Assembly: GCA_026023565.1 (NCBI GenBank)
Contig: JAPETS010000037.1
Span: 248,001 to 277,410, forward strand
From: Cirrosporium novae-zelandiae
Taxonomy: Eukaryota
Length of the DNA: 29,410 bases
Direction of reading: 5' to 3'
In this document: one piece after another, positions 1,923 through 23,251 of the stretch
Layout: every line of letters begins with the position of its first letter
Numbering within the stretch: position 1 is the first letter of the stretch
Program-made: the position numbers and the translations under genes
Notes under the pieces: model-generated
What the model was told of the DNA's origin: nothing
Seen by the model: the letters and a program-made list of their open reading frames with translations, nothing else
Database searches by the model: none

Positions 1923-3453
1923 TCACATCTCAGAAATAAACCCCCCTGCCATCCCCATCCCCGTCCCAACACACATACTAACAACCAGAACCTTCCCCCC
2001 CAAATCCCCCTCCCCCCTCCTCCTCAACTCGCTCAATCCCGAAACCACAAGCCTAACCCCCGTACACCCCAACGGATGCCCCAGAGCGATAGCCCCACCC
2101 CTAGGATTCATCTTCTCCCTTTCAATACCTAATTCCCTTTGCGTGTATACGGCCATGCTGGCAAAGGCCTCGTTGATTTCGAAGAGGTCGACGTCGTTGA
2201 CTGTGAGTGTGGGAGTGGAGGGGGAGGGGGAGTATTGGCGGGAGAGGCGGGAAAGGAGTTTTGGGATTGCGAGGGTGGGGCCGATGCCCATTATTCGGGG
2301 TGGGAGCCCCGTTGTGGTGCTGGTGAGGTATTTTGCGAGGATTGGTTGCGAGAGCGTGTGCGCCAGGGATCGGGTCATTAGGAGGACTACGGCGGCTATA
2401 TTGGGGGTGTTAGTGAGGGGGGTTTTTTAGGGGGGTATTTATTGGAGGGACGAAAGGGAGGAGAGGGGAAAGAGGGGGAGGGGGGAGTAAAAAGGGAAAG
2501 AAAAGAAAACAAATCCAACATACCACCGTCAGTAACCTGGCTCGAATTCCCCCCTGTACTCCTATCCCCGAATTCCGGAAACGCTGGTTTAATCTGACTC
2601 AAACCCTCAAACGTGGTACCCCATCTGGGCCCCTCATCCCTGGTAACGAGCACCTCCGTCTCAACCCCGGTCTCCGGATCCCTCACTTTAGTCCTCACGG
2701 GGACAATCTCATCCTCAAACCAGCCCTCCCTCTGAGCATGTTCGGCCTTGGCAAAACTATCCGCCGCGTATCGATCCTGCGCCTCCCTGTCGACGCCAAA
2801 CTCCCTCGCCACCGTCTCGCTGGTCTGCCCCATCGGCTGCATGCAGTCTCTCGCGTCTGAATTCGCGTTTAGGATGTCGTCGTGGAAAGGTCGGTCGAGG
2901 CGGTCGCCTCCTGTGGTCATGCTCTCGGCGCCGATGGCGATTCCACATTCGATGTCGCCGTTTCGGATCGCGTTGGCGATATCTTGAATTGCTTTGAGGC
3001 CTGAGGAGCAGAAGCGGTTTACCGAGGACGAGGAGGTCGTGACGGGGAAGCCGGCGGCGAGCAGAGCCGCGCGGATTTGGTAGGCTGATTTGCTAGAGGA
3101 GACGTTGCCTACGCAGATGTCTTCTACGAGGGATGGGTCGATGTGTGAGCGGGCGAGGACTTGCTTTAGGAGCGAGTAGAGAAGGTAGTCTAAGGGTGTG
3201 TCTTTGAAGAGGCCTTTGTGTGCTTTGCATAGGGGTGTGCGGATTGCGAGGGTTATGACGATGTCGTCGGGGTTTTTGGAGGTCCTAATTTGTTGGTTTG
3301 TGGATTAATGGGTGTGTGATATTAAAGGTCTTTCTTTTTCTTTTGAAAGGTTAAAGGGGGGGTTCTAGCTTACATATTTTCTCGTGGGCTCTTGGGGGAG
3401 GATGAAGAGGGGGTGATGTGCTGGAGGATAGAAGAAAGGCGTTGGGTTGCCAT
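1923..3453 (-). CDS. POT1: Peroxisomal 3-ketoacyl-CoA thiolase (thiolase I, Pot1/Fox3-like), 3 exons
   Basis: Exons 3453-3374, 3284-2524 and 2395-1923; introns GTAAGC..TAG and GTATGT..TAG keep the frame. N-terminus MATQRLSSILQHI (PTS2-like), then NPDDIVITLAIRTP, catalytic Cys motif NRFCSSGL, GNSSQVTDGAA, EINEAFAS, GGAIALGHPLGCTG and SMCVGTGMG. Confidence 0.95.
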
Positions 3454-3666
3454 TTTGTAAACTTTTGGTAGTAGAATATAACAATTGGAAGCACGCTTTT
3501 GTCAATTGATGAACAAATAGATTTATTAGTATATAGCAAACTATGACAAAAAATCAAAAGATCCAAGGAAAGCTGGAGAAGAGGAGAGCTATATACTTCT
3601 CTATATGCAAGATGTGGGGGAATGCGGCAATGGCCCTTCGACTGGATTGACCAAAATGTTAATCTG

Positions 3667-3672: not shown

Positions 3673-4054
3673 TTCAGATTAGATAAGGGTCACGTGGGGT
3701 TTCATTAGGTACTTGTGCATACCACTAGCCTTTTCTTATACCATTTCCTATCGCCCACTCACTGCATAACACCTTCAGGACTTTGACGATATAAGTTTAT
3801 TAGGAACCAATATAGAAAAATCTTGAAGCTTTTGTTTCTTCCCGGCGCGTCAAATCATTCAGTAGTCTATCGTTGGTATTCAGTTATCTATGCCTCTTTC
3901 GAACATGCGAGGGGCCGAGAGACACCAAACTCTCTCAATCATCATCATCATCATCCTCTGCTCAGAAATTCATTCATACGCGGTATGCATAATCATCAAT
4001 ATGTCGTCGTAGTGCAGCCATCTACTGCTTCCCCGCCCATTATGAAATCCCTAT

Positions 4055-6554
4055 TTAATTTTCCGGCTCCTCGACCGCATCCGGCTTCACCGCATCGGCA
4101 TCCTTCATCTCCACATCCTTTTTCGTATCCTCCTCAGCCTTCTTCTTTGCTTCCTCTTCCGCCCGTTTCTTGGCTGATGCTTCTTCTTGCGCCTGGATGA
4201 TTGCTTGGCGCTCACCTTCTAGCTTGTCGAGATGACGCTGCACCACGGGTCCAGCGACGAAGCGAATTTCATCCATCTTGGCAACATAGACAGCCTTGGT
4301 GGCATCTTCACCATCCTCGTAGAGCCAGTCCTGTCGAATAAATTAATAAAATGGGAACCATTACTTGGCATAAGATTCGTCATTCAAAACTTACCTCGGT
4401 ATCCGTGAGCTTCGCTCGGATTTTGTCTTTCTCGTCATCGCTGGCGAATTCTGCATAAATGGTATCAACTTTCTCTCTCATCTCGTAGATGTATGATTCA
4501 AGCTCGTTTCGCATGTGCTGAGTGTCCATGACAAGCTTATCTTCCATGAACATCATATTCTCTTTCTCGGCCGCCGCTTCCTTGGTTGCTTGGTCCATCG
4601 CTGCTGTTCCGCTCGAGATAGGGAGGTCACCCTTGCGGACCTGCTTCTTGACTTTGCGCATCTTGGGCTTGGCATCGGCTTTGTTTGTGTCCATTGACTG
4701 TGCAGGTGAATTCGTTAGTGAGGGTTGTTTCTCTTTCCCGGCGTCCGAAACGGATGCAAAATTAGGCTTTGAAAAACTGCCCGTAAAAGACGGAGGGCTG
4801 GTAAAACGCGGCTTCTTATGTGGATGCGAAAGATCATCACCTACATCTTCGTTCTTATCTCCCTCCTTGTCCTTCTCTTCCGGCACCGGCTCTTCCACCT
4901 CGACATCTTCGACGTAATATCCGCTTTCGACATTTAAGACTCCGTGGAGGTTCAATCTCGCCTTTAGTTTACAAATCATAAAGTCATCTTTTGAATCTGC
5001 CTTGACGCCCTTAACCGAAAATCGTCCGATCCAACCGCTCGGGTTCCCGGGGAGAAGTTCCGGCTTGGCATAACGGGCCTCGAGATCGAAAGGTTGCTTG
5101 CGATAAAATGTAAGGATCTTGGTTGATGGCATGACATTGCCCTTGTTGAAAACCGTGAGGCTGGTATCCTCATCTGGGATATCTGGAGATTGTTCCCAGG
5201 TGAATTCAATTGGATAGTTCACCATGTCGTGGACAGAGAAGTCACGGACACGGAAAACAGGAGATAGGATTGCGCAGCTGAATGCACAACCTCGGGCAAC
5301 AGCCTCGTCTTGGTTGAGAGTGAAAGATAGTTGCTTTCCGAAGAAAGAGGCTATCTTCTCCTTCAAGACAGGGACACGAGTGCAACCGCCGACCATCTCG
5401 ATCGAATCAATGTCTTCGATATTCAGCTTGGCATCTGCGAGAGCCTGCTCCAGAGGGATAGTAACTCGGTCGATCAGAGGTTGCACAAGAGCTTCGAGTT
5501 CTTCTCGCTTCAACATTGAACGAACGTCAATATCATTCATCAAAGATTCAATGTTGAGGGGTGCAGCTGCATTGGCGGAGAGAACCTTCTTCTGCTTCTC
5601 AGCAGCGGCAGCAACTCGGAAAAGAGCCTTCGGGTTGGTTTTGATGTCGATCTTATATTTGTCCTTGAATTCCTTCGCGTAGTGGTCAACCAGAGCCTTA
5701 TCAAAGTTCCGGCCACCGAAATGTCTATCAAAAGCTGTAGCCTTAACAGACAATTCGCCCTTCTTGAATTCCACTATCGAGCACGTGTAGTTGCTGTGAC
5801 CAATATCAACAAAGGCGACGCGTCGTGGCTTTTCATCTCCGGTAGGTAAATCGAGCTTGGTGATGCCATATCCCAATGCGACTGCAGTTGTGTCGTTGAT
5901 CAGTCGAAGACACTTGAGTCCGGCGATTTCTGATGCATCCAAGAGACTTCTCCTCTGTGCATCTGTAAACCATGCTGGCACGCTCATGACGACATCAGAA
6001 ACAGGGAGTTTAATCTCAGCGGCTGTGATGGCTTTGATCTTGTTGAGGAACATGGAAACAAGCTGGGTTCCGGTAAACTGATCCTTCTTTCCAAGGTAGT
6101 TGACCTCTATACCAGCCTGGCCATTGACATCGACGAGATGGGCCGCCAGATACTCCTGTTCTATTTCGACATCTGGATCTTTGAATGAGCGACCAGAGAG
6201 GCGCTTGAGAGAACCAACAGTATTCTTGAGGTTAGAAACCTCTTGAGTTTTTGCGGCCTCACCGATATATCTGTTTTTGGGGCCAAAACCGACGAGAGAT
6301 CTATCAAGAAAAATAATCAGCAATCATATTCTTTTTTATCAGGCGGATAAAAATTCTAGAGGACTTACGGAGTGGCGCGGTTGGAAATTTCGTTGGTGAT
6401 CTAAACACATATAAATCAGTAAATTTGGATGAAAGTTATCGATAATGGTGGGAATGGTGGGGGGAGGGGGGAATCATACAACATCAACACCTCTGTTTCT
6501 GGCAACCGCAATAACGGTGTTGAGATTGCCCAGATCAACACCTACTACAGACAT
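4055..6554 (-). CDS. hsp88: Hsp110-family chaperone / Hsp70 nucleotide exchange factor (Hsp88/Sse1), 5 exons
   Basis: Exons 6554-6480 (MSVVGVDLGNLNTVIAVARNRGVDV), 6400-6369 (ITNEISNRATP), 6300-4845, 4697-4395 and 4330-4055 (DWLYEDGEDATKAVYVAKMDEIRF). All introns are GT-AG and in phase. Motifs include FGGRNFD, EMVGGCTRVP, TLNQDEAVARGCAF and NELESYIY. Confidence 0.96.
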
Positions 6555-6898
6555 GATGGCCTGTATAGGGAATATCTAATGCGTAGGAGAATGGTGAGGA
6601 AGTATCTTTAAGGGGAAGAAAATTTAGGTGGTGATGGGGGGGGTTTGCGGTTGTTGGTTATAGTGTCGGTATGCAAGTTGTAAAGAAGGCAGAATAAGGA
6701 AAGGCAGGTTTTGACGTGTCGCACAAGTCAGAGGTGCATTTAAGAAAGAAAAAAACAGGACTTTGGATTGATAACCGGATCGATGATTGACCTGGGAACT
6801 TTTGTTGATGTAAGAGAGAAAAAATAAATAGTCTGACTGGACTGAAGAAGTTATTGAGGGTAAATCTCTGAGAGTTTTTGGGTTGAGGCCAATCGACT

Positions 6899-6918
6899 GG
6901 AAACTTCTCGCAAGTTCA
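6899..6918. promoter_or_regulatory. Putative heat shock element (Hsf1 site) upstream of hsp88
   Basis: gGAAa-cTTCt-cGcAa-gTTCa: four alternating nGAAn units with one mismatch, about 350 bp upstream of the hsp88 ATG. A 2-unit cGAAccTTCc sits at 7050-7059 and CCAAT motifs flank the element. Confidence 0.65.
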
Positions 6919-7164
6919 AGCCAATTCCGACCAAGATCCCAAGAATTCCACGCGCTGACTGACTTCTCGCTCCCTCAGGCTTTTTTTTTCTTGCTGAGTT
7001 TGGTGGGGCAATAGGCCCACCAAGCCCTATCCTCCCTATCAAACTCATCCGAACCTTCCAATTTATTCCCTAACCAAATTCAATCTGAAGTCATTATTTG
7101 CACATGTCCCCCCAGCATTATTAATTATACCACTCTACATACCACTCTACTAACCATTCGGGCG

Positions 7165-8072: not shown

Positions 8073-10799
8073 TTACCGTTTCCTCGTGAGTTTGTGCGTC
8101 TGCTTCTTGCGTCTTCTACCATTTCCGCCCTCTTCATCACTTGCCAACCATGAACCCCTTTGACCATCCTCCATAAGGGATCTTCGTTGTTCATCTAATT
8201 CGACATTTTCAAAATCGTCATTGTGGCTTTGCTCCCGTGACAGAGGGCTCTTCTTATGTGTTCGTTGACCGCCTGATGCTTTCAATAAAACACGAGGCTC
8301 TGCATTTGCCAAATCCTGACGAATTCCCAAATCTACTGAAAGGGATCTGCTTCGATATGCCTCATAATCCTCATAAGTAGACTCAAGAGAGCCCACACTA
8401 CTGCTGTTGATCATTCTAGAGTAACCGCTCTCACTTGGATGATGCACTTGAGGAACCAGCCGCGTCTCATTCCCGTAACTTATAATGATCGAAGACTCGT
8501 CCGACGACGATGATGATAAGTCTTGTTCGCTAACCATTTCGTAGACCTTCCCAGGAGTCGGCCCGTTCATGTAGGACTCAGATGAGGAATGTTGAGCTCG
8601 TTGAGCTACCAGGTATTTTCGCCGATCTTCGTCTCCCATCAAGCTTTCCACTCGGCGTGGGTGATACACCGAGTTATTTGCTGTAGCTATTGACAGATCT
8701 GATTCAGATGAGTAGCGAGGATGCACAGGAACAGAAAGTACATTGGAGTTTGTTGGTAATGTATTTAGCAAGGTTAGGCCAGAGTCATTCTCCTGGTGAT
8801 ACCAACCTCCTGGGAGGAGCTCGGCTGGAGCGAAACGACCTTCGATGCGGTCTGACGGATGCAATGGCATCTTCAGGGATTTCTTGTGCTGGAAATCTGC
8901 TGCAGGCTTGAAGCTCTCTGGTACTACATTGAGGTCATCCCCAGTCGCTTCGGCGTGTGCAATGGCTTGTGCTGGCGTGGTTGTTGAATCTGCTGCCCCG
9001 GCATCGGCTCGAGGTCCACCCCATGTTCTCTGGCCCGCTGTAAATATTCCATACACCATATAGAGCCAATTGAAAAAAGGATTGATGATAAACATTATAG
9101 GATAAAGCCAGATTTTGAAACGCTTTAGTTTTGCACCAAAGTAAATCATTAACAACCAATTGAGGCCCAAAGACACAGCAATAAAACCAACAGGGAGGTT
9201 TTCGATTTTATTGGATGTTGTAATAATTGAGACCACCATGATGAAAAATAGAAGAGCCGTCGTTCGGATAGTATTTTGCATAAACCTAATTATACAGAGA
9301 ATGGGGTACCGTCTCCAGAGTCGGATGTCTGTTAGCATGCAGGCTTCATTGGTGATGAAGCCTAGGAACCAACGTCGGCGCTGTTTAAGCAAGCTTCTAA
9401 ATGTCTGCACCGCTTCAGTTTTGCAGAATGCACCAGTACACATCTGAATCTGGTTCCGTTCTTTGGCCCCGATCATGAATAAATGAGTCAGCCAACGGTC
9501 TTCCCCCAAGTGACATTTTCCATAATCAAAGAGATCATCGCATTGTTCTGCCTTATCAGCAAAGTAATACTTGGCCATTTTGCGAAAAGCAGAGAATCGA
9601 AGCATTGTCAGTGCGCCAGGTAAGCACGTCACAGCTCCGCAGCCGGATTCAACTGAGCGTTCAAAGAGCTGGCCATGTATATACTCCATATCCTGCAAAA
9701 GTGTAATTAACGAATGCTTTTCTGTAGTCGAAGTTATGATTCCGGTCATGGCCAACATGTTCTGCTTGCTTCCAGGCTTAAGTTCCTGGCGATGAAAGTT
9801 TTTGGATTAGTACGATGTTTCTTCGATTACGAGGGCTGTGACATACCATCTCATACATGAAATTTTGGATGCAGACCTGATCCAGAATGCAATCCGAATC
9901 AATAAAAAGAATGAAGAGATTGTCATGTCGCTTCAAGTATTGGGTATAAATCTTATCGATAAGCTTGAAAGTGGCTTTTTGGCAATGTCTTTTTCCCCCA
10001 TGCGGGAATCTCGATACAGTTATACGGGCCCTTCGGTAAGTCACATCAATACTCTTGGGATAACTCCTGAGAGTCAACGGAACGCCTAGTTTTTCAATCG
10101 TGTTGAGGTAGAGTTCATCCTCCTGTTCGCCATCAAACGAGAGAAAAACATGAATACATGAAGGAGGATAGTCACAGTCTACGACCGAGTCGATCGCAGT
10201 GACGAGAACATCGGGGTCTTCTTTGTAGCAGGGCATCACAATGACCGTCTTCGGAGCAGATGCTTCGTCGAGAACCGTCTTGATTTGTTTCTGCCGTCCA
10301 ATATTATGGGTTACGATTTGAAAAACACAGAAAAGCCAAGGAACAATCAGTAGTCCGGCAAAGGTCCAAAAGGCAAACCACTGGAGAAACGATACCATTT
10401 TTTCTGGAAAATATTGTGTAATTGTCGCTGGCAAAGGAAGCGTAACAACCATGATAGGCAAAAATATACCCCTACAAAGATGGACCTCTTAGTCAGATGT
10501 ACTAGAGCAATTGTTTGAACCTTACCTCAAAACAGCGAACATTATCATGATAACCACTGACAATGTTCGTATGGTCCAATGTTCAGCTTTCTGAAAGACC
10601 TTAACCAAGCAGTATAGGAAAGCTGCAAGCCAGAGGAACCATTCGAGGAATGCAGCCATCATCACGGTGCCAACAATGGAAACATAAATTATCTAACCAA
10701 GAATCAGCCAACAGAATAAGTCATAGATTTGTATTTTCCTACATCTGCTGTCTTCCAAGGAGCTGTGATTGGCGGGACTCCATTATCAGATTCCCCCAT
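8073..10799 (-). CDS. chsD: Chitin synthase, ChsD type (class VI in the common Aspergillus scheme; GT2), 4 coding exons
   Basis: Exons 10799-10743 (MGESDNGVPPITAPWKTAD), 10692-10526 (IIYVSIVGTVMMAAFLEWFLWLAAFLYCL...), 10471-9847 and 9785-8073. N-terminal TM segments, then VMPCYKE, HGGKR, FIDSD (DxD), TCLPGALT, LGEDRWLT, QRRRW, C-terminal TMs, RTWGGPR and a disordered tail. No myosin or cytochrome b5 domain is seen. Confidence 0.92.
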
Positions 10800-12632: not shown

Positions 12633-15600
12633 CTATGTATAACTCCTCATTGCATCTAGATATCCAGTCCCGCCCCTGAAATCATGATCGAAGGATTCCG
12701 CAACATCTAATACACGCTTGATGTGCTGCATGGAAAGCGGCTCCTTCTCATTAATCGCCAGGGCTTGTGCAGTACGGACCGAGTTTTTAATCTGTCCCGA
12801 ATGTCAGTTTACAACAATATTTGATAAAGGGATGGATAACCATACCTGTCTGCCGTTTAGATTATGCCGAGCCAAATCATTAATGTCACTATCCGTGAAC
12901 TTGACCACCTCAACACCCTCAACGGCCTTCACTTTTTCCAAGAACATGATCCACACGCTCTTCTTGGCTTTAGTGCTCAGCTCGCCGTATTTAAGAGCAA
13001 TATGAATACGAGACTGGAAGGCATCGTCGAAAGTTTCAACGCGGTTGGTAGTGAGGAAAAGGATTCCTTGGAAGTATTCTAAGAGACGGAGGAAGATAGA
13101 GACAAGAGCATTGCGGTGAATGTCCTGGATAGTACGCTTTTCTAAGAAAACATCTGCTTCGTCCAGCAACAGTACTGCACCCCAAGAATGTGCAATATCC
13201 AAAATCTTGGTCAATTCGGACTCCAAGGTCCGTGAATCCGTACCAAGTTCCCCAGCACTGACCATATAGAGGGGTCGCTTGAGGAGCTCCGCGATACCTT
13301 CAGCAGTAAGTGTCTTGCCAGTGCCCGGTGGACCATGAAGTACAGCCACCAAGCCCTTACCTTTACCTTGGATAACGTCATCAATGTTCTCCGCCGCATG
13401 GAAAGTATGCGACTCAACCAGTGCTTTCACAATTGACTTCTGGTTGCCGGGAAGGACTAATGAACTGAAGGCTTCCTCATTCCACTCAATATCGTGGACC
13501 CCTGAGACGGTAAATTCAAGCCAGAGTTTTTCGCCAAATGAGAATCCTAATACGACAGGGCTGGCAATGAGAAGTTCTTCCTCCGTGAAAGTGTCTGCCT
13601 TAGTATCCTTCTCCGAGTCAGGTTCAATCTTCTCGATATCTTCACATTTGATTTCGTTGCCGTTCTCGTCGAATTCAACCTCGATGATGTGGGCGTTTCC
13701 TTTTTTGTCTCGGATCATCTTCCACGCCCTTTTGACCCTCTCTTTCTCGTCTAAGTTCTGATCCGCTTGATTTTCTTCATCTGAGTCACCTCCACCACAG
13801 CAACAATCTCCCTCCTCGTCATCGTCCTCGGGCATAATGAGATCTGGATCTTTTGGCTTAACATTGCTTATTGGGTAATTTGGATTGATGCGACGATGGA
13901 TGGCAGGATCAAGCATGATTCTTCCATTGATATTGACTTTGACAACGGCTCTTCTCTTCTTGAAGAATGCCATGCCTTTATGGAACCGATAGTTCATGCC
14001 TTTTAGAGAGACAAACTTCTTACCTCGCTCGATCAGCTGAGCTCTTAATTTTTCTTCCTCCTTGTGGTACTTCAAGGGGTAGCAGGCAAGACTGGTGATC
14101 CGTCTGGGGCCTTTGAAGGATTCCACATCAACTTCTATTGTACCCATTCCAAAGTTCTTTCCATCAAATTCCAGATAGCGTCCTTCAATGCAATACCAGG
14201 ATCCTTTGATAAACGAAGTCTCCTTGGTGACGTATTCAATCTTAAATGCTCGAGGCTCATCGGCGTTACCGTATGTGTCAGTGTAAACAATGTCATTGGG
14301 TTTGTAGAGCGCCCATAAGAGATCAAAGGTGATTGTGCCTGACTTAAACAGGGGACCTAGCGTCTTTTTGGTTTTTGCATAGTCCTTGTCAACATACTTT
14401 ACCAGAATCTTAAGATGAGCAGCCTTGGTTTTGGCAAGCTTTTTCGCCTTCTTCTTTTTCTCTGTCACGGCGAGCTTCTCCAATTCCTTCTGGTATTCTC
14501 GAAGTTCTTCAATAAAAAGGAATAGATCATTCGGATTCAGCTCTGGAGTGTCTTCGACAAGACTTACACCCTTTACAGCTCCAAGGACATGGTTCATTGC
14601 TTCCTTGAGAGGCTTGCTCTTAATATCCACAACCGTCTCCTTGTATTTATTATCCCAGTCAAATTTGCGCCGTACGTTGAAGATGTACTGGGAGAATTTA
14701 TCGGTCTCCTCGGCATTGTCAGCGGTTTCAGCAAGCTTGAAATCGTGTATTGAAGTATCGTATACTAAGTGAACAATTGTTAGTCCAAAACAAAATCAGT
14801 CAATATTCACGAGCCAAGCGAGCCAGTGTAATGCGATTTGCCTGTTTTTCGAATATGCCGTAGACCAAAACAGATTTGTCCTAGTCTCGAATCTTGTTGC
14901 GACGTAGATGAACTCAAAGTCTTCTGACTACCTCGGTACATCTTTGTAATTTGGCATGGCATGGCTTGTCGTAAATACTAGAACCAGTAGATTGAAATTG
15001 ACTTACATTCGTCGACCCTCTTATAGGCCACTTTAGATGCTCGTTTGGCTTTCTTTTCTTTCTTCCCTCCTTTTTCTTTCTTGTCAGCTAAATCCTTGCC
15101 AGTCTTTTTGATAGCTTTTCCAAGACTACCCTTGCGCCCACCTGATGCTGTAATTAACTGGGTTAGAAGCTCCTTCATTGCGTCGACGTCCCCACCGGCG
15201 TCCTCATTGTCTTCTGCATCTTCATCGTCGTCCTTGTCGTCCTTCTTAGATTTCGACTTTGACTTTCGCCGCTTTACTTTGTCATCATCCGACTCATCGT
15301 CGCTGCTGTCTGAAGACTCGTCACTGTCTTCATCAGACTCCTCTTTCCGCGACTTGAGCTTCTTCTTCTTCTTCTTGTCTTTAGGTTTCTTGGAGCGAGC
15401 TTTGGACTTTCGCTTTCGCCTCTTCTTCTCCGGCTCTGACTCGGAGCTGGAGGAGGATTCCTCCTCGGTGTCTTCGTCTTCACTTGAGCTAGAACTAGAG
15501 CTAGAACTAGAACTCGAAGAATGTTCGCTATCACTGTCCGACCCTTCCTCGGCGCGCTTCTTTTTCTTGAGGGACTTTTTGGCCTTCTTAGACTGGGTAT

Positions 15601-15961
15601 TGGAATGCTTCTTGCAGTCAGGCTTCTTCACAACCTCTGTACCATTTGTAGATACCTCGGGTTTTGATTCAGATTTGGCAGTGGTGGTATCGACAGAGGA
15701 AGGGATTACCTCGTCGCTAGTGGCGGGTGTCTTGTCCTGTTCAGCCTCCATCTTGTCATCAGTTTGGACCTTATCCTTGGAGGGAGAGGAGATTTGGGAG
15801 GTATCGGAGATTGGTTTGGAAGGATAAGATGAGGTCGGGGAGGTAAGACCTTCGCTGGATCTGTCAGGTTCTGGAGGCAAGCCCAATGAATTTATAGGTG
15901 AGAGAGTGGACGAAGATGACAAAGGAGGAAGACTATTGGTGTGATTAGATGGAGATGTCAT
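12633..15961 (-). CDS. Fungal AAA+ ATPase (single AAA module) with long Ser/acidic/Lys-rich disordered N-terminus, 3 exons
   Basis: Exons 15961-15007, 14764-12846 and 12791-12633 (IKNSVRTAQALA...GYLDAMRSYT*). Walker A GPPGTGKT, Walker B LLLDEAD, FLRLLEYFQGILFLTTNR, D-AFQSRIH and LNGRQIKN. The ITFDLLWALYKP and DDVIQGKGKGL segments are typical of this Pezizomycotina AAA family. Start codon could instead be the Met of MEAEQ. Confidence 0.92.
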
Positions 15962-16891
15962 GAGTCAAGACTAGCTAGAGCTATCTAGCTGAGTCAAAGT
16001 TGGGGCTGAGTTCTATGAGAGTGGTAAGGCTGTAGGGCGGGTAGAAAAGGCTCTTTATCGATGATGATAAGGAAGGAAAGAAAAAGTTGGAGAGAGATCT
16101 GGAAGCTCTAGAAGTTATAGAAATGGTGGGTTTGACAAAGAGTGAGGCCACGGGTGGACCAGGAACACAAAAACGATGAGAGATGTATTGGAGGCGTAAG
16201 TAGTAGCATAATCGAAAGCAAACAATCATGGCTCCTTTTATATGAGCTGGCCACCGCCTTCTAGTGATGAGGCTTGGGGTGTGAATTATGAATTGGAATT
16301 GGAGTCGATGAATGGCCAAGACTCAATGGTCGGTCAATGGAAGTTGGAATTGTGAATATCCGTATCAAGCAAGTATCAAGGCGTAGACTAAGGGCCTTTT
16401 TTTCCCAAGGGCTTTTCCCTTTTTCCAGGGCTCAAGGCTCAAGGCTCAGGCGGCAGGCTTCGCTTGGACGGGGGTTAATGGTTAATGTGAATGAAGGAAA
16501 GAATTACTATTGGAATAATTGAATTGGCACTGCAATTTTTGTGTCAAGGGTGAGTGAGGGTGAGTCAATAGTTCAAGGTTCAGTCAGTCAGTGGGTTAGT
16601 CTAGGTTTCCCCATTTTAGCGGGTGATGCCTGGTGCCGCCTGTTGGTCCGGCTAAACATTCAAGTGTAGCCACGATAGATACCCCCCCCCCAACAATATT
16701 AATATACATTATTATTTCGTGAACAGCCATCATCATCATTATAATCATCAACAGTCAAGTCATCATCATCCAAAAAATAAATAAAAAATATCCATGAAGG
16801 ATTCAAAATCAATCTCTCCATCTATTTTAATTACATTCTTCATTATTCACCCCGACACGGATCACACATAAAGTCTAATCTGAGACTGGTG

Positions 16892-18000: not shown

Positions 18001-19128
18001 TGAATGCGTCCAAGACTAGACCCAGAGATGGGTTCGGATATACCCTCTTTTTTCAACGGTCGGGGGTTTTATGTTTTCCACGATCAAGTTCGTCAAGAAT
18101 CATATATTTTGTTGTATTTTCCTTCTTCTGTCAGTGTTCTGTGGAGATATCGACGACGTTGAGGGCGGACGAGGTCACATGGTGGCTCGAGCGTTATCGA
18201 CTCCCTCCAATTATTAACTTAAGCGCCTACTATGGGATTTTTATCATCATATATATTAATCTTTTATTTGTTGTATATCTGACGAATGAGATCCCTACTG
18301 TAGGTGCAGGTAGTTGGACCTTTGATCAATCCCTGCGTCTATACCTTTTATCTCCTCGAGGCCTTATGCCTTCCTTCACCAAGTTATCGGTATACCGTGG
18401 CCAGTATTCTTGGGACAAAATGATAGGATCCCCAAACGCTCATGATACGCTCAAGTATAGGAATATTCCAGCAAAAATACTGAGTTCTACCCTATGCTTG
18501 ATGCTTTGTTGGCAGAATCATCATTGATAATCCCGTTCAACACTATCTGTCTGTTGGTGAGTTTGTTGATATCTACTTGCCCCAAGCAGCAAACATTTCT
18601 TTACGAAGCACTCGCCTCTCGTACCTTGCTAGTTATTTTTCAAATAAGCCTGTGTTTGCATAGATTGGACAGCTCCCTTTGCCTTGCGCGGCTCTGCTTG
18701 TATTGGTCAATCTTTAGACGAAATATTTTCTGGTTGGTTGGAGAGGGAAACCTCAATATCTTGACCTCCGGTGGTCCATTCAACCGTCTGGCCCCCACTG
18801 CCGAATTTTTCATTGAATATACCAAGCATTGCTTGTTTTCAAAGAACGTCGTCGATATATCTCTCTCTAAATGTCTAAGTAGGCCTCTTTTTCGTGTTTG
18901 TTAAAGGGGAGACATCATTTTCGTTTGACCCGCTGACTGCTAACATTGCTGTGAACGCTTTTGTACGATTTTATCACCCTCCTTCCGTTTGCTTAGTTGC
19001 TTTAGGGATTCCATAATCTATAAGAATCGATCTCTTTTCCTTCTCATATCTCTGATCAGCCTTTCTCCTTTAACTGATCAAGAGAGCAGATTCATCTTAA
19101 CAAAATACCATCACGTCTATCAGAAAGG

Positions 19129-20244
19129 ATGACACCCATCTACTCATTTCCAGTCCGAAGTTCACGTCATCCTCGGCCCCCTCAACGCTCCTACAACTTC
19201 TATTACAACGACCAACCGCTAAAAAGCTTAACGCGCTCAACCATGACAAAATACCTACCCAACCTCGTCAACTCCCTCTCCGAGTCCCCTCTCCCAGACC
19301 TACGGCGCCTAAACCGCCATCGGATCATCTCAGAATGCCATATAGACTCGGGCACGTATTTCGAAACCCTCCGCCAACTCTTCCAAATCCTAAATCGCTA
19401 TGAAAAGAAACACACCACGACAAGACCGATCCAAAACCATCTCTCCCAAACCTGGACCCAGCAATACATGCGCAGCACATGGACTCACGGCCCCCCAACA
19501 CACCTCTTCCTAAAAAACTTCATCTGCCTCTGCGGTATCGCCGCCACCTTGGCTACCACCAGTACTAGCACTAGCACCCACACTCACACCAACCGTCTCA
19601 AAACCAGCCTCCACGACTTCCTCGCCAACCACATCAGCTCCCTCGCCCTCACTCTTGGCATGACATCCACCCTCCTAATTCTGGAAGCCCTCGCCACAAC
19701 AACAAGCCAAAACATCCAAAATCTGCTCGAGTCTCTCATCGAGGTTATTCCTTCCCAGGAACGAGATCTTCTTGAGAGAACCCGGGGAGAGATTCGTTTG
19801 CCGTTTATGGAGAGGCCGGGAAAGTGCGTCGTAAGGTGTATGGAGAAGATTTATGGACGAAAATATCGATGTCGACATGAGGCTGGGGGGGAGGCTTCAT
19901 GCCACCACCATCATCATGGGCAGCAGCAACAACATTTTTATATCGACAATGGACACCCAAGAATAACCCATAATAACCCCTTCCACAATAACCACAATCA
20001 CAACCACAATCGCCCTATCCGAACACTAGCCCATTACACCTCCAACACTAACTCCAACTACGACTACAGCCACCTACCACACTATCATCACCCACGCCAC
20101 CCCAGCTCAATCTCAATCCCATCCCCCTACCCCCACAACCACAACCCCGACTCCGACTCCGACTGGGTCTACTACGATTCCGATCCCGATCACGACTTCA
20201 ATCATCTCACTAGCAAAAAAACATACCTATCTCCAACTTGGTAG
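19129..20244 (+). CDS. Hypothetical protein (371 aa), predicted helical core with His/Asn/Pro/Asp-rich low-complexity C-terminus
   Basis: Uninterrupted ATG-TAG ORF of 1116 nt with C-rich third positions and a pyrimidine-rich leader; no family recognised. Confidence 0.65.
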   Translation: MTPIYSFPVRSSRHPRPPQRSYNFYYNDQPLKSLTRSTMTKYLPNLVNSLSESPLPDLRRLNRHRIISECHIDSGTYFETLRQLFQILNRYEKKHTTTRPIQNHLSQTWTQQYMRSTWTHGPPTHLFLKNFICLCGIAATLATTSTSTSTHTHTNRLKTSLHDFLANHISSLALTLGMTSTLLILEALATTTSQNIQNLLESLIEVIPSQERDLLERTRGEIRLPFMERPGKCVVRCMEKIYGRKYRCRHEAGGEASCHHHHHGQQQQHFYIDNGHPRITHNNPFHNNHNHNHNRPIRTLAHYTSNTNSNYDYSHLPHYHHPRHPSSISIPSPYPHNHNPDSDSDWVYYDSDPDHDFNHLTSKKTYLSPTW

Positions 20245-21236: not shown

Positions 21237-23251
21237 TCAAACCCCACTGACCCTACAATCCACAACGGCGGACCTCCCGCCCTTGACAACCTGCACAGCC
21301 TCCCCAAGAACATCCTTCAACTCACCGACCTCGCCGATCCTGCCAGGCCAAACCCACCCGCCACTTGCAGCAGTCGCAATGCCCGCATAATCCGGCGCCG
21401 GGTCATCCAAGCTAATGTTCAATTCTCGATTATTGACCTTGCTTCCCTCGCCGTCAGGGTGAACGAGCAATAGGCTGCGGCGCGGGGCATTCCACCCGTG
21501 GTTGTTGAGCACGATGGTGAGAGTGGGTAGGGAGTAGCGGGAGGAGATCCAGTGGACGGAGGAGGGCATGCTGAAGAGGAATGTGCCGTCGCCTACGATC
21601 TGACAGATGAATTTCGGGGTTGGGTTTTCGTTTCCGTTTGCGATTGACGGGGGGAGGGTGTCGGTAGCGAGTTTAATGCCTAGGGATGCCCCGCCAGACC
21701 AACCAAGGCCGCCGCCGCCACAGTTTAGCCAGCTTGATGGGTACGTTGGTTGGATTTGATTGGCTACGGCTAGGGTGTGCGTTACAGCTTCGATGACCCA
21801 AATTGTGTCTGGTGGGCAGAGCGTGCGGAGGTGGGCACAGAGTTGGGAGGTTGTGAAAGGATCCGTGGAGGAGGTGGGGAGGGTGCCTTGGGCGGCATAA
21901 GCGGCAAGACGAGCTTTGTGCGATTGGATGAGGGTGATTTTTCGGGAGGTATAAGGGTCCGAGGAGAGTGTTGAGAGATACGAGGGGGTTGTAGTGAGGT
22001 GGGAGGTTAATTGCGTGAAGGACGTGTGCGCGTCTGCCGTGTAGCGGGCGATGGCGGGGATATAGAAGGTTGGCATGAGCCGCTTGAGGGGGTCAATATC
22101 GATGTGGATGATTTTTGCTGAGGCGGAGGGCTTGCACTGTGTTGGAATCCAGGGCACGTCGCAGTCTACTACAAGGATGAAGTCTGCCGTGGGGATCGCG
22201 TCGTTGATACCGTAGCTAAGGCCGAGGCATCCAGGATGGTCAAAGGGGAAGCACATGTCCGAGCCACCGGTGTCTAGGACGCGGAGGCCAGGGATCGTGT
22301 CCGCTAGTTTGACGAGGGAAGAGACGGCGGATGGATTGCGACCCGAGTAGCCGGTAATGAGGAGAGGGGACTCTGCTGCCACGAGGTGTTTGCAGATGAG
22401 TTCAATGCCTTCTTGGGGGAGGGCGGCTGGGCCAACAGGGCTCCAGACCGTTTGATCAAGTTGGTAGGGTGTGAGATCTTCTTCCATGACCTCGCGCGCG
22501 CCACAGAGATAAACGGGGCCTTGAGGATCCGAGGTCGCAAATTGAAGGGCTCGATTGACCATCTGTTTGACATTTTTTCCCGACTTGATTTCACCCGCAT
22601 ACTTGCAGTACTGAGCGACAATTGCCTTTTGATCGGGGACGTCTTGGATCCAGTGGATGTATTCAGTCCTGCTCCCTCGCATCTCGCCTTCTAGGGTAAC
22701 AGGAGAAAGACCAGCAAAGATGAGAACAGGTGCTCGTCCTGTGCTAGCATTATGGATAGAACATCCTAGACCCTGGGTTCCCACGTCGACATGGACAATG
22801 ACACATTGCGGTTTACCTGTCAATCGGGCGTATCCATCGGCCATGGAACAAGCTACCATCTACAGAGGATCAGCATCCAGCTTTGATTGACAGCCAGCCA
22901 TTGGGCAAGATGGATTTCTGAAACCGACTTCGCTAGGACATGTCATTATCTTGGGGAATTGATCCTTCCTTTCCTTTTGGCCCTTAACCATTGCTTCAAT
23001 AATAGATGGATGGTCGGATCCTAGGTTGACGAAGCAGTGTGTCACACCAGCCTAGAGTGTGAATATACAATTAGTTAATTTATATGAAGGGCCCCCGGAC
23101 AAAAGAAAAAAACGACGACAAACCTCCCATAGAGCCTCGAAGAAGGCGAAAGATGCCGTATAGACCCTAGAGAGTAAACCATGTTAGTATGGTGTTGTTC
23201 CTCGTATTATCAAATTAATTGATTAATCAACTCCAATCAATGTACGTACAT
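21237..23251 (-). CDS. Thiamine-diphosphate-dependent enzyme (acetolactate synthase/benzoylformate decarboxylase-like superfamily, substrate unknown), 4 coding exons
   Basis: Exons 23251-23250 (AT), 23166-23124 (G+VYTASFAFFEALWE), 23051-22929 (AGVTHCFVNLGSDHP...CPSE) and 22859-21237. Catalytic Glu in CPSEMVA, MADGYARLTG, VHVDVGT, and the ThDP/Mg motif GDGTFLF...LNNHGW. Confidence 0.92.

Follow-up and report, generated by a model that had tools for sequence, protein, structure and literature searches.

A conserved in-frame intron encoding a nuclear-import-like motif in the hsp88 (Hsp110) gene of Cirrosporium novae-zelandiae and other filamentous fungi

Results and discussion

Organization of the locus

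The window, i.e., the whole 29,410-nt stretch of Cirrosporium novae-zelandiae DNA that was analysed, carried a five-exon hsp88/sse1 (Hsp110) gene on the minus strand, with the ATG at 6554 and the stop codon at 4055 (Table 1). Just downstream of hsp88 lay a thiolase gene (1923-3460, minus strand), the N-terminus of whose product, MATQRLSSILQHI, has what we take to be the look of a type 2 peroxisomal signal. Further genes on the minus strand encoded a chitin synthase-like glycosyltransferase of family 2 (8073-10488), a DUF7025/AAA ATPase (12804-15964) with a long, low-complexity N-terminal frame rich in Ser, Lys and acidic residues, and a thiamine pyrophosphate-dependent enzyme (21237-22859); on the plus strand, a 388-codon open frame (19078-20244) had a His/Asn-rich tail and no Pfam match.

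Table 1 Features of the hsp88/sse1 gene (positions are those of the window)
Feature	Position	Strand	Remark
Exon 1 (coding), hsp88/sse1	6480..6554	-	ATG at 6554; P0002 matches here
Intron 1, 79 nt, ordinary	6401..6479	-	
Exon 2	6369..6400	-	
Intron 2, 68 nt, ordinary	6301..6368	-	
Exon 3: ATPase domain, substrate-binding beta domain, first half of acidic loop	4845..6300	-	
Intron 3, 147 nt, phase 0, stop-free, dual intron/coding (49 aa)	4698..4844	-	sequence and orthologues
Intron 3 5' splice site, GTAGGT	4839..4844	-	
KKPR codons, residues 531-534 of the retained protein	4806..4817	-	
Candidate internal phase-0 donor, GTTTCG, weak	4746..4751	-	placed by position from Dothideomycete-like loci
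Intron 3 branch site, CTAAC	4714..4718	-	
Intron 3 3' splice site, CAG	4698..4700	-	
Exon 4: second half of loop, start of helical domain	4395..4697	-	
Intron 4, 64 nt, ordinary	4331..4394	-	orthologues used as control set
Exon 5, through stop codon	4055..4330	-	

Intron 3 began after codon 521 (GAT), ended in CACAG and translated into 49 residues, the other two frames being interrupted by stops. A preliminary description, made from the letters of the window, had presented it as a 147-nt, phase-0, stop-free intron with a GTAGGT donor, a CTAAC branch site and an acceptor, about twice as long as the other introns of the gene and encoding KKPR. All of these features were confirmed between 4844 and 4698, the KKPR codons (4817-4806) by translation of the 49-residue peptide and the length by comparison with the gene's other three introns (79, 68 and 64 nt). 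The GC content of intron 3 was exon-like (0.48, versus 0.49 in the coding sequence), in contrast to 0.41, 0.29 and 0.31 in introns 1, 2 and 4, respectively. Splicing yields a product of 713 aa and retention one of 762 aa; since KKPR was the sole K[KR]x[KR] match within the 762-aa form, the spliced product has none.

The public model P0002 (762 aa; Cirrosporium novae-zelandiae, class Xylobotryomycetes) treats intron 3 as an exon. Its own splice signals, together with its orthologues, suggest that intron 3 is spliced out in this fungus. When the intron of the window was shuffled on its own, the probability of a stop-free frame was 0.16 and that of the motif in a stop-free frame 0.014, i.e., about 8e-4 jointly with a length divisible by three (3n); as this figure is post hoc, the weight is carried by the orthologues.

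Identity of the protein and place of the insertion

The gene product matched the Pfam HSP70 family (E 1.8e-163), and its nearest solved structures were those of yeast Sse1 (E about 1e-199). An Hsp70 fold, closest similarity to Sse1 and an insertion in a loop of the substrate-binding beta domain were thus all found, as in the Hsp110/Sse1/Hsp88 family. The alignment to solved yeast Sse1 was broken at residues 518 to 577 of the query, where the peptide of intron 3 falls, in agreement with the earlier placement of the insertion in the variable loop of the Hsp110 substrate-binding domain. Among 12 places matched in the genome, this gene was the sole close Hsp110 match, the others being Hsp70-family pieces of 23-43% identity.

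As read from the sequences, the inserted segment would be exposed and carries a conserved match to the classical monopartite nuclear localization signal (NLS) consensus, K[K/R]X[K/R]; some copies of the intron motif appear bipartite. A complex predicted between the intron peptide and importin-alpha of this genome (L116, first armadillo exon) scored 0.30, with the mark set at 0.34.

Conservation of frame and motif in orthologous introns

Orthologous loci were sampled from metagenome contigs with a pattern of the upstream exon, blind to the intron, which gave at least 113 loci, although this pattern may miss whole classes. Among the 113 loci listed, this codon position was interrupted by an intron in 73 and uninterrupted in 40; the introns of L077, L103, L088, L098, L111 and L112 were delimited by hand. 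Counted at 80% identity and with the window left out, the loci listed contained 43 distinct introns, 34 of which were 3n (p 1e-9 versus one third, with relatives treated as independent). Within the same list, 32 of the 34 3n introns were stop-free, versus 8.4 expected from shuffles that kept the splice ends, and K[KR]x[KR] was encoded by 22 of the 32 open introns, versus 0.58 expected. The motif was specific to the reading frame: when 35 3n introns from the loci listed were translated in their two alternative frames, no match appeared.

The signal survived coarser clustering meant to lower kinship. At 65% identity, 31 introns remained among the loci listed, 23 of them 3n, 21 open (6.1 expected) and 12 with the motif (0.41 expected); at 58%, the corresponding figures were 17, 10, 9 (2.0 expected) and 5 (0.23 expected). 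Intron 4 served as a control: in 31 of the loci listed it was 3n in 15 and both 3n and stop-free in 3, and it encoded no motif, whereas intron 3 was open in 24 of the same 31 loci (Fisher p 9e-8 for 24/31 versus 3/31). An open frame of 3n length was therefore found above both chance and the control, as in a conserved coding retained intron. An initial protein search had displayed the same read-through pattern in most of the 120 matches listed, and was left out of the frame statistics because it ranked sequences by loop likeness and was biased to read-through forms. Motif-bearing introns of the loci listed spanned 69 to 216 nt, so that frame and motif alone are conserved.

Selection on the encoded peptide

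With dN/dS pooled over non-independent pairs in peptide-guided alignments and core columns picked around the motif, nine Pleosporales-like introns gave 0.19 in the eight codons around the motif and 0.87 elsewhere, and eight Helotiales-like introns gave 0.08 in the motif region and 0.50 elsewhere. In the latter, K-R-P-R-L was invariant in all eight, with two or three codons used per residue. Purifying selection on the encoded peptide was thus found in the motif region of two clades. Together with the enrichment in 3n length, the lack of stops and the retained basic motif, this dN/dS below 1 completes the set of orthologue checks that the preliminary description had proposed, each of which came out in its favour among the loci listed (34/43, 32/34 and 22/32 for the first three). 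The six Lecanoromycete-like introns with a different conserved peptide had a core dN/dS of 0.78, which counts against the interpretation. Synonymous divergence in the intron was about half of that in the exon (0.58 versus 1.04, and 0.87 versus 1.69); some constraint at the nucleotide level may therefore add to that on the peptide.

Splicing and inclusion in relatives

Each of the 33 open introns (window included) of the loci listed had GT at the donor, AG at the acceptor and a branch site of the form CTRAY, i.e., signals of the U2-type spliceosome. With these signals intact, the segment is an intron as well as an exon. It was absent from all 12 full-length transcript-like contigs, which counts against inclusion, although such assemblies show the major form. 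The transcript-like contig L021 clustered with named Hyaloscypha proteins (Leotiomycetes) and shared their splice junction. An open motif-bearing intron was present in the genomic locus L019, which the tree placed as nearly identical to the Hyaloscypha proteins. These observations identify the spliced form as the major one.

A retained form was represented by P0155, which was identical to the genomic open frame P0106 at 727 of 727 aligned residues, lacked the 17-aa read-through of intron 4 present in P0106, had a spliced N-terminus and kept intron 3 with KKPR; P0156, on a 2675-nt contig, was alike. The simplest reading is that both derive from mRNA retaining only intron 3, in a single lineage, the RNA origin being suggested by the protein sequences. 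Targeted protein searches (23 and 16 matches) returned genomic open frames and gene models, and no further mRNA-like retained product.

Across species, gene models go either way, with the segment included or spliced. Those of Alternaria (Dothideomycetes) and Pyrenophora, which are predictions, contain the whole segment or only its motif-bearing 5' part. In the loci listed, an internal phase-0 GTA donor, located behind the basic motif and 51-69 nt before the acceptor, was present in 10 of 15 Dothideomycete-like introns, versus 1.3 expected, GTA accounting for 19 of the 301 exonic valine codons; it is the donor used in some of the Alternaria and Pyrenophora models. The distance to the acceptor was 57-63 nt in L010, L014, L016, L017, L020, L061, L072, L077, L090 and L099. 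The window has only the weak GTTTCG (4751) at a like position, the use of which would leave a 54-nt intron and keep KKPR. Internal acceptors are annotated in Teloschistaceae, and Xanthoria and Calogaya models include the peptide through an internal acceptor. These sequences point to inclusion by alternative 5' and 3' splice sites besides full retention. Retention, the route of inclusion put forward in the preliminary description, is supported, though it need not be the sole route.

Distribution and variants

Clades were labelled, and only labelled, from a quick tree of 80 rows, with loci of fewer than 250 upstream residues left out and many deep forks unsettled. The motif form occurred in clades labelled by Pleosporales and Helotiales references, in the class of the window and with Pycnora (Candelariomycetes), that is, with references of at least Dothideomycetes, Leotiomycetes, Xylobotryomycetes and Candelariomycetes. 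No locus of the sample could be recognised as belonging to Sordariomycetes, Pezizomycetes or Orbiliomycetes. Among the loci listed, the intron was missing from 10 genomic loci, 11 of 44 distinct introns (window included) were frame-shifting or stop-bearing, and the strict motif was absent from 10 of the 33 open ones; in the clade of Elaphomyces (Eurotiales), introns at this position were short and ordinary. As judged from these sequences, the feature is dispensable and lost in some lineages, which counts against the interpretation. Long but frame-shifting versions (101-148 nt) were noted in L006, L043 and L078; they are perhaps decayed cassettes or alternative-acceptor forms.

In Lecanoromycete-like (lichen-forming) loci, the intron mostly encoded a basic, Lys/Phe-rich, amphipathic-looking peptide (examples: loci L009, L029, L031, L040 and L098; proteins P0011, P0048, P0083, P0123 and P0124), which presumably resembles membrane-targeting helices. 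This peptide is apparently included through an internal acceptor; the intron of L031, although 3n+2 in length, could be read without a stop in the frame of the exon that follows it. Hydrophobic moments were 0.46-0.82 for Lecanoromycete-like peptides versus 0.35 for that of the window, and since motif-bearing copies reached 0.83, amphipathicity makes no clean split.

Proposed isoform switch and alternative explanations

Since the intron is kept translatable and carries a conserved nuclear-import-like signal, splice choice probably makes a cytosolic and a nuclear Hsp110 in many filamentous fungi. We regard it as likely that intron 3 is dual-coding and that importin-alpha imports the minor isoform, an exchange factor for nuclear Hsp70 under this view. 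In the proposed sequence of events, most transcripts would be spliced at intron 3 and give the 713-aa Hsp110, devoid of a classical monopartite import signal, while a minority would keep intron 3 whole or use the second donor behind the motif. Inclusion would add a short disordered K[KR]x[KR] peptide to a surface loop of the substrate-binding domain, importin-alpha would carry the motif-bearing isoform into the nucleus, and there it would serve nuclear Hsp70 as a nucleotide exchange factor. The orthologue checks support the splicing switch first suggested from the window, in which inclusion adds the NLS-like motif. Under this scheme, retention would also occur in Cirrosporium novae-zelandiae itself, and stress may regulate it; for heat, the argument is one of analogy only.

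In yeast, Sse1 resides mostly in the cytosol; nuclear disaggregation is slower when Sse1 is kept out of the nucleus and faster when it is given an NLS (PMC5440654). The same report also describes a low level of Sse1 in the nucleus without such a switch, which counts against the need for one. As nuclear disaggregation in yeast needs nuclear Hsp110 (PMC5440654), the proposed switch would offer a mechanism to fungi with one Hsp110 gene, and one that is concrete and mutable, consisting of one intron and one four-residue motif. In filamentous fungi, whose retained introns are mostly regarded as noise or decay, it would also be one of the few instances of intron retention that diversifies a protein and is deeply conserved. 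The intron accounts for the differing lengths of public Hsp88 models (about 715, 750 or 770-810 aa).

The peptide of the minor isoform might be no import signal, the motif and the longer loop tuning instead Hsp70 binding, holdase activity or another partner. This is considered unlikely; loop-length isoforms of fly and human Hsp110 agree with it, the fly paper discussing regulation of the contact with Hsp70 (10.1101/2025.11.18.687301), as does the different conserved peptide of Lecanoromycete-like introns, but the constraint sits on the four-residue K[KR]x[KR] core, with the length and the remainder varying freely, and this core is the consensus used for Fes1L (PMC4831876). That the segment is now a constitutive exon in Cirrosporium novae-zelandiae, with one form and no switch, appears rather improbable: the window has kept its splice donor, branch site and acceptor, as has every one of the 33 open introns of the loci listed, orthologues are spliced and gene models of other species go either way, against which can be set its inclusion in P0002 and its exon-like GC content.

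Two further explanations deny the peptide a function of its own. It is very improbable that the open frame serves only as a safeguard against leaky retention, which would otherwise end in truncated Hsp110 or in decay. The 22 motifs versus 0.58 expected (loci listed) and the synonymous-only change at the motif would go unexplained, and the next intron of the gene has no such protection, even though the spliced form dominates and the peptide outside the core is near-neutral in Pleosporales-like loci. That the intron is conserved for its RNA, be it a structure, a snoRNA or a splicing regulator, and is open only as a by-product, is scarcely credible. The lower synonymous divergence of the intron and a conserved GTA stretch in the 3' half of Pleosporales-like introns would be in line with it, but conservation is frame-specific and at the amino-acid level, Rfam gave no match inside intron 3 (two weak matches lay elsewhere in 4000-7000) and the folding of the intron was not unusual (z-score -0.23).

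A broader form of the proposed switch is possible though doubtful: the intron may be an old, exchangeable address cassette of the loop, included by stress-regulated splice choice that differs by lineage (retention, second donor or second acceptor), with a nuclear signal in most classes and a basic amphipathic, possibly membrane-binding helix in Lecanoromycetes. If so, fungi and animals would have converged on splicing in the same loop to set the workplace of Hsp110.

Comparison with known systems

In the literature searched, which took in few subscription journals, no spliced nuclear isoform of a fungal Hsp110/Hsp88 was found. Intron retention is known in fungal Hsp70-family mRNAs from the Hsp70 transcripts of Trichophyton rubrum (PMC6830096), but those events concern other genes and break the frame by premature stops. 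In PTC7 and GND of yeasts, a 3n stop-free retained intron or an alternative acceptor alters protein targeting (PMC7491326), with other genes and other signals involved; SSE1 does not occur in the main text of that report.

In mammalian HSPH1 (Hsp105alpha/beta) and Drosophila Hsp110 (A/G; 10.1101/2025.11.18.687301), what sets the isoforms apart lies in the same unstructured loop of the substrate-binding beta domain, and Hsp105beta is nuclear and heat-induced (PMC4771732, PMC4598581, PMC4951298). The animal loop is varied by a cassette exon, whereas a dual-coding intron is found here, and the nuclear form is the shorter one in mammals, whereas in the fungal gene it is the longer one that has the motif. 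A nuclear form of the Hsp105beta type arises when a loop exon is skipped; the motif described here comes in with the intron sequence. No evidence of a common origin with the animal splicing event was found.

Saccharomyces FES1 offers a close fungal analogy, in that an Hsp70 exchange factor with a cytosolic form (Fes1S) has a nuclear one (Fes1L) that is given K[K/R]X[K/R] by alternative splicing, and in that the switch is conserved across species and lost in some (PMC4831876, PMC7491326). Fes1 differs in belonging to the armadillo family rather than to Hsp110. In addition, FES1 transcripts gain a C-terminal exon when spliced and encode the cytosolic form when the intron is retained, whereas the Hsp110 gene would gain an internal peptide through retention or an alternative donor. 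The Fes1 gene of the present genome (L115:1057-1782, minus strand) had no evident Lys/Arg-rich tail, and no K[KR]x[KR] was seen by eye in two frames. A nuclear switch in Cirrosporium novae-zelandiae may be carried by Hsp110 rather than by Fes1. With another gene or another type of splicing, and with the opposite sign, the Hsp110 intron is thus a member of neither the Fes1L nor the Hsp105beta type.
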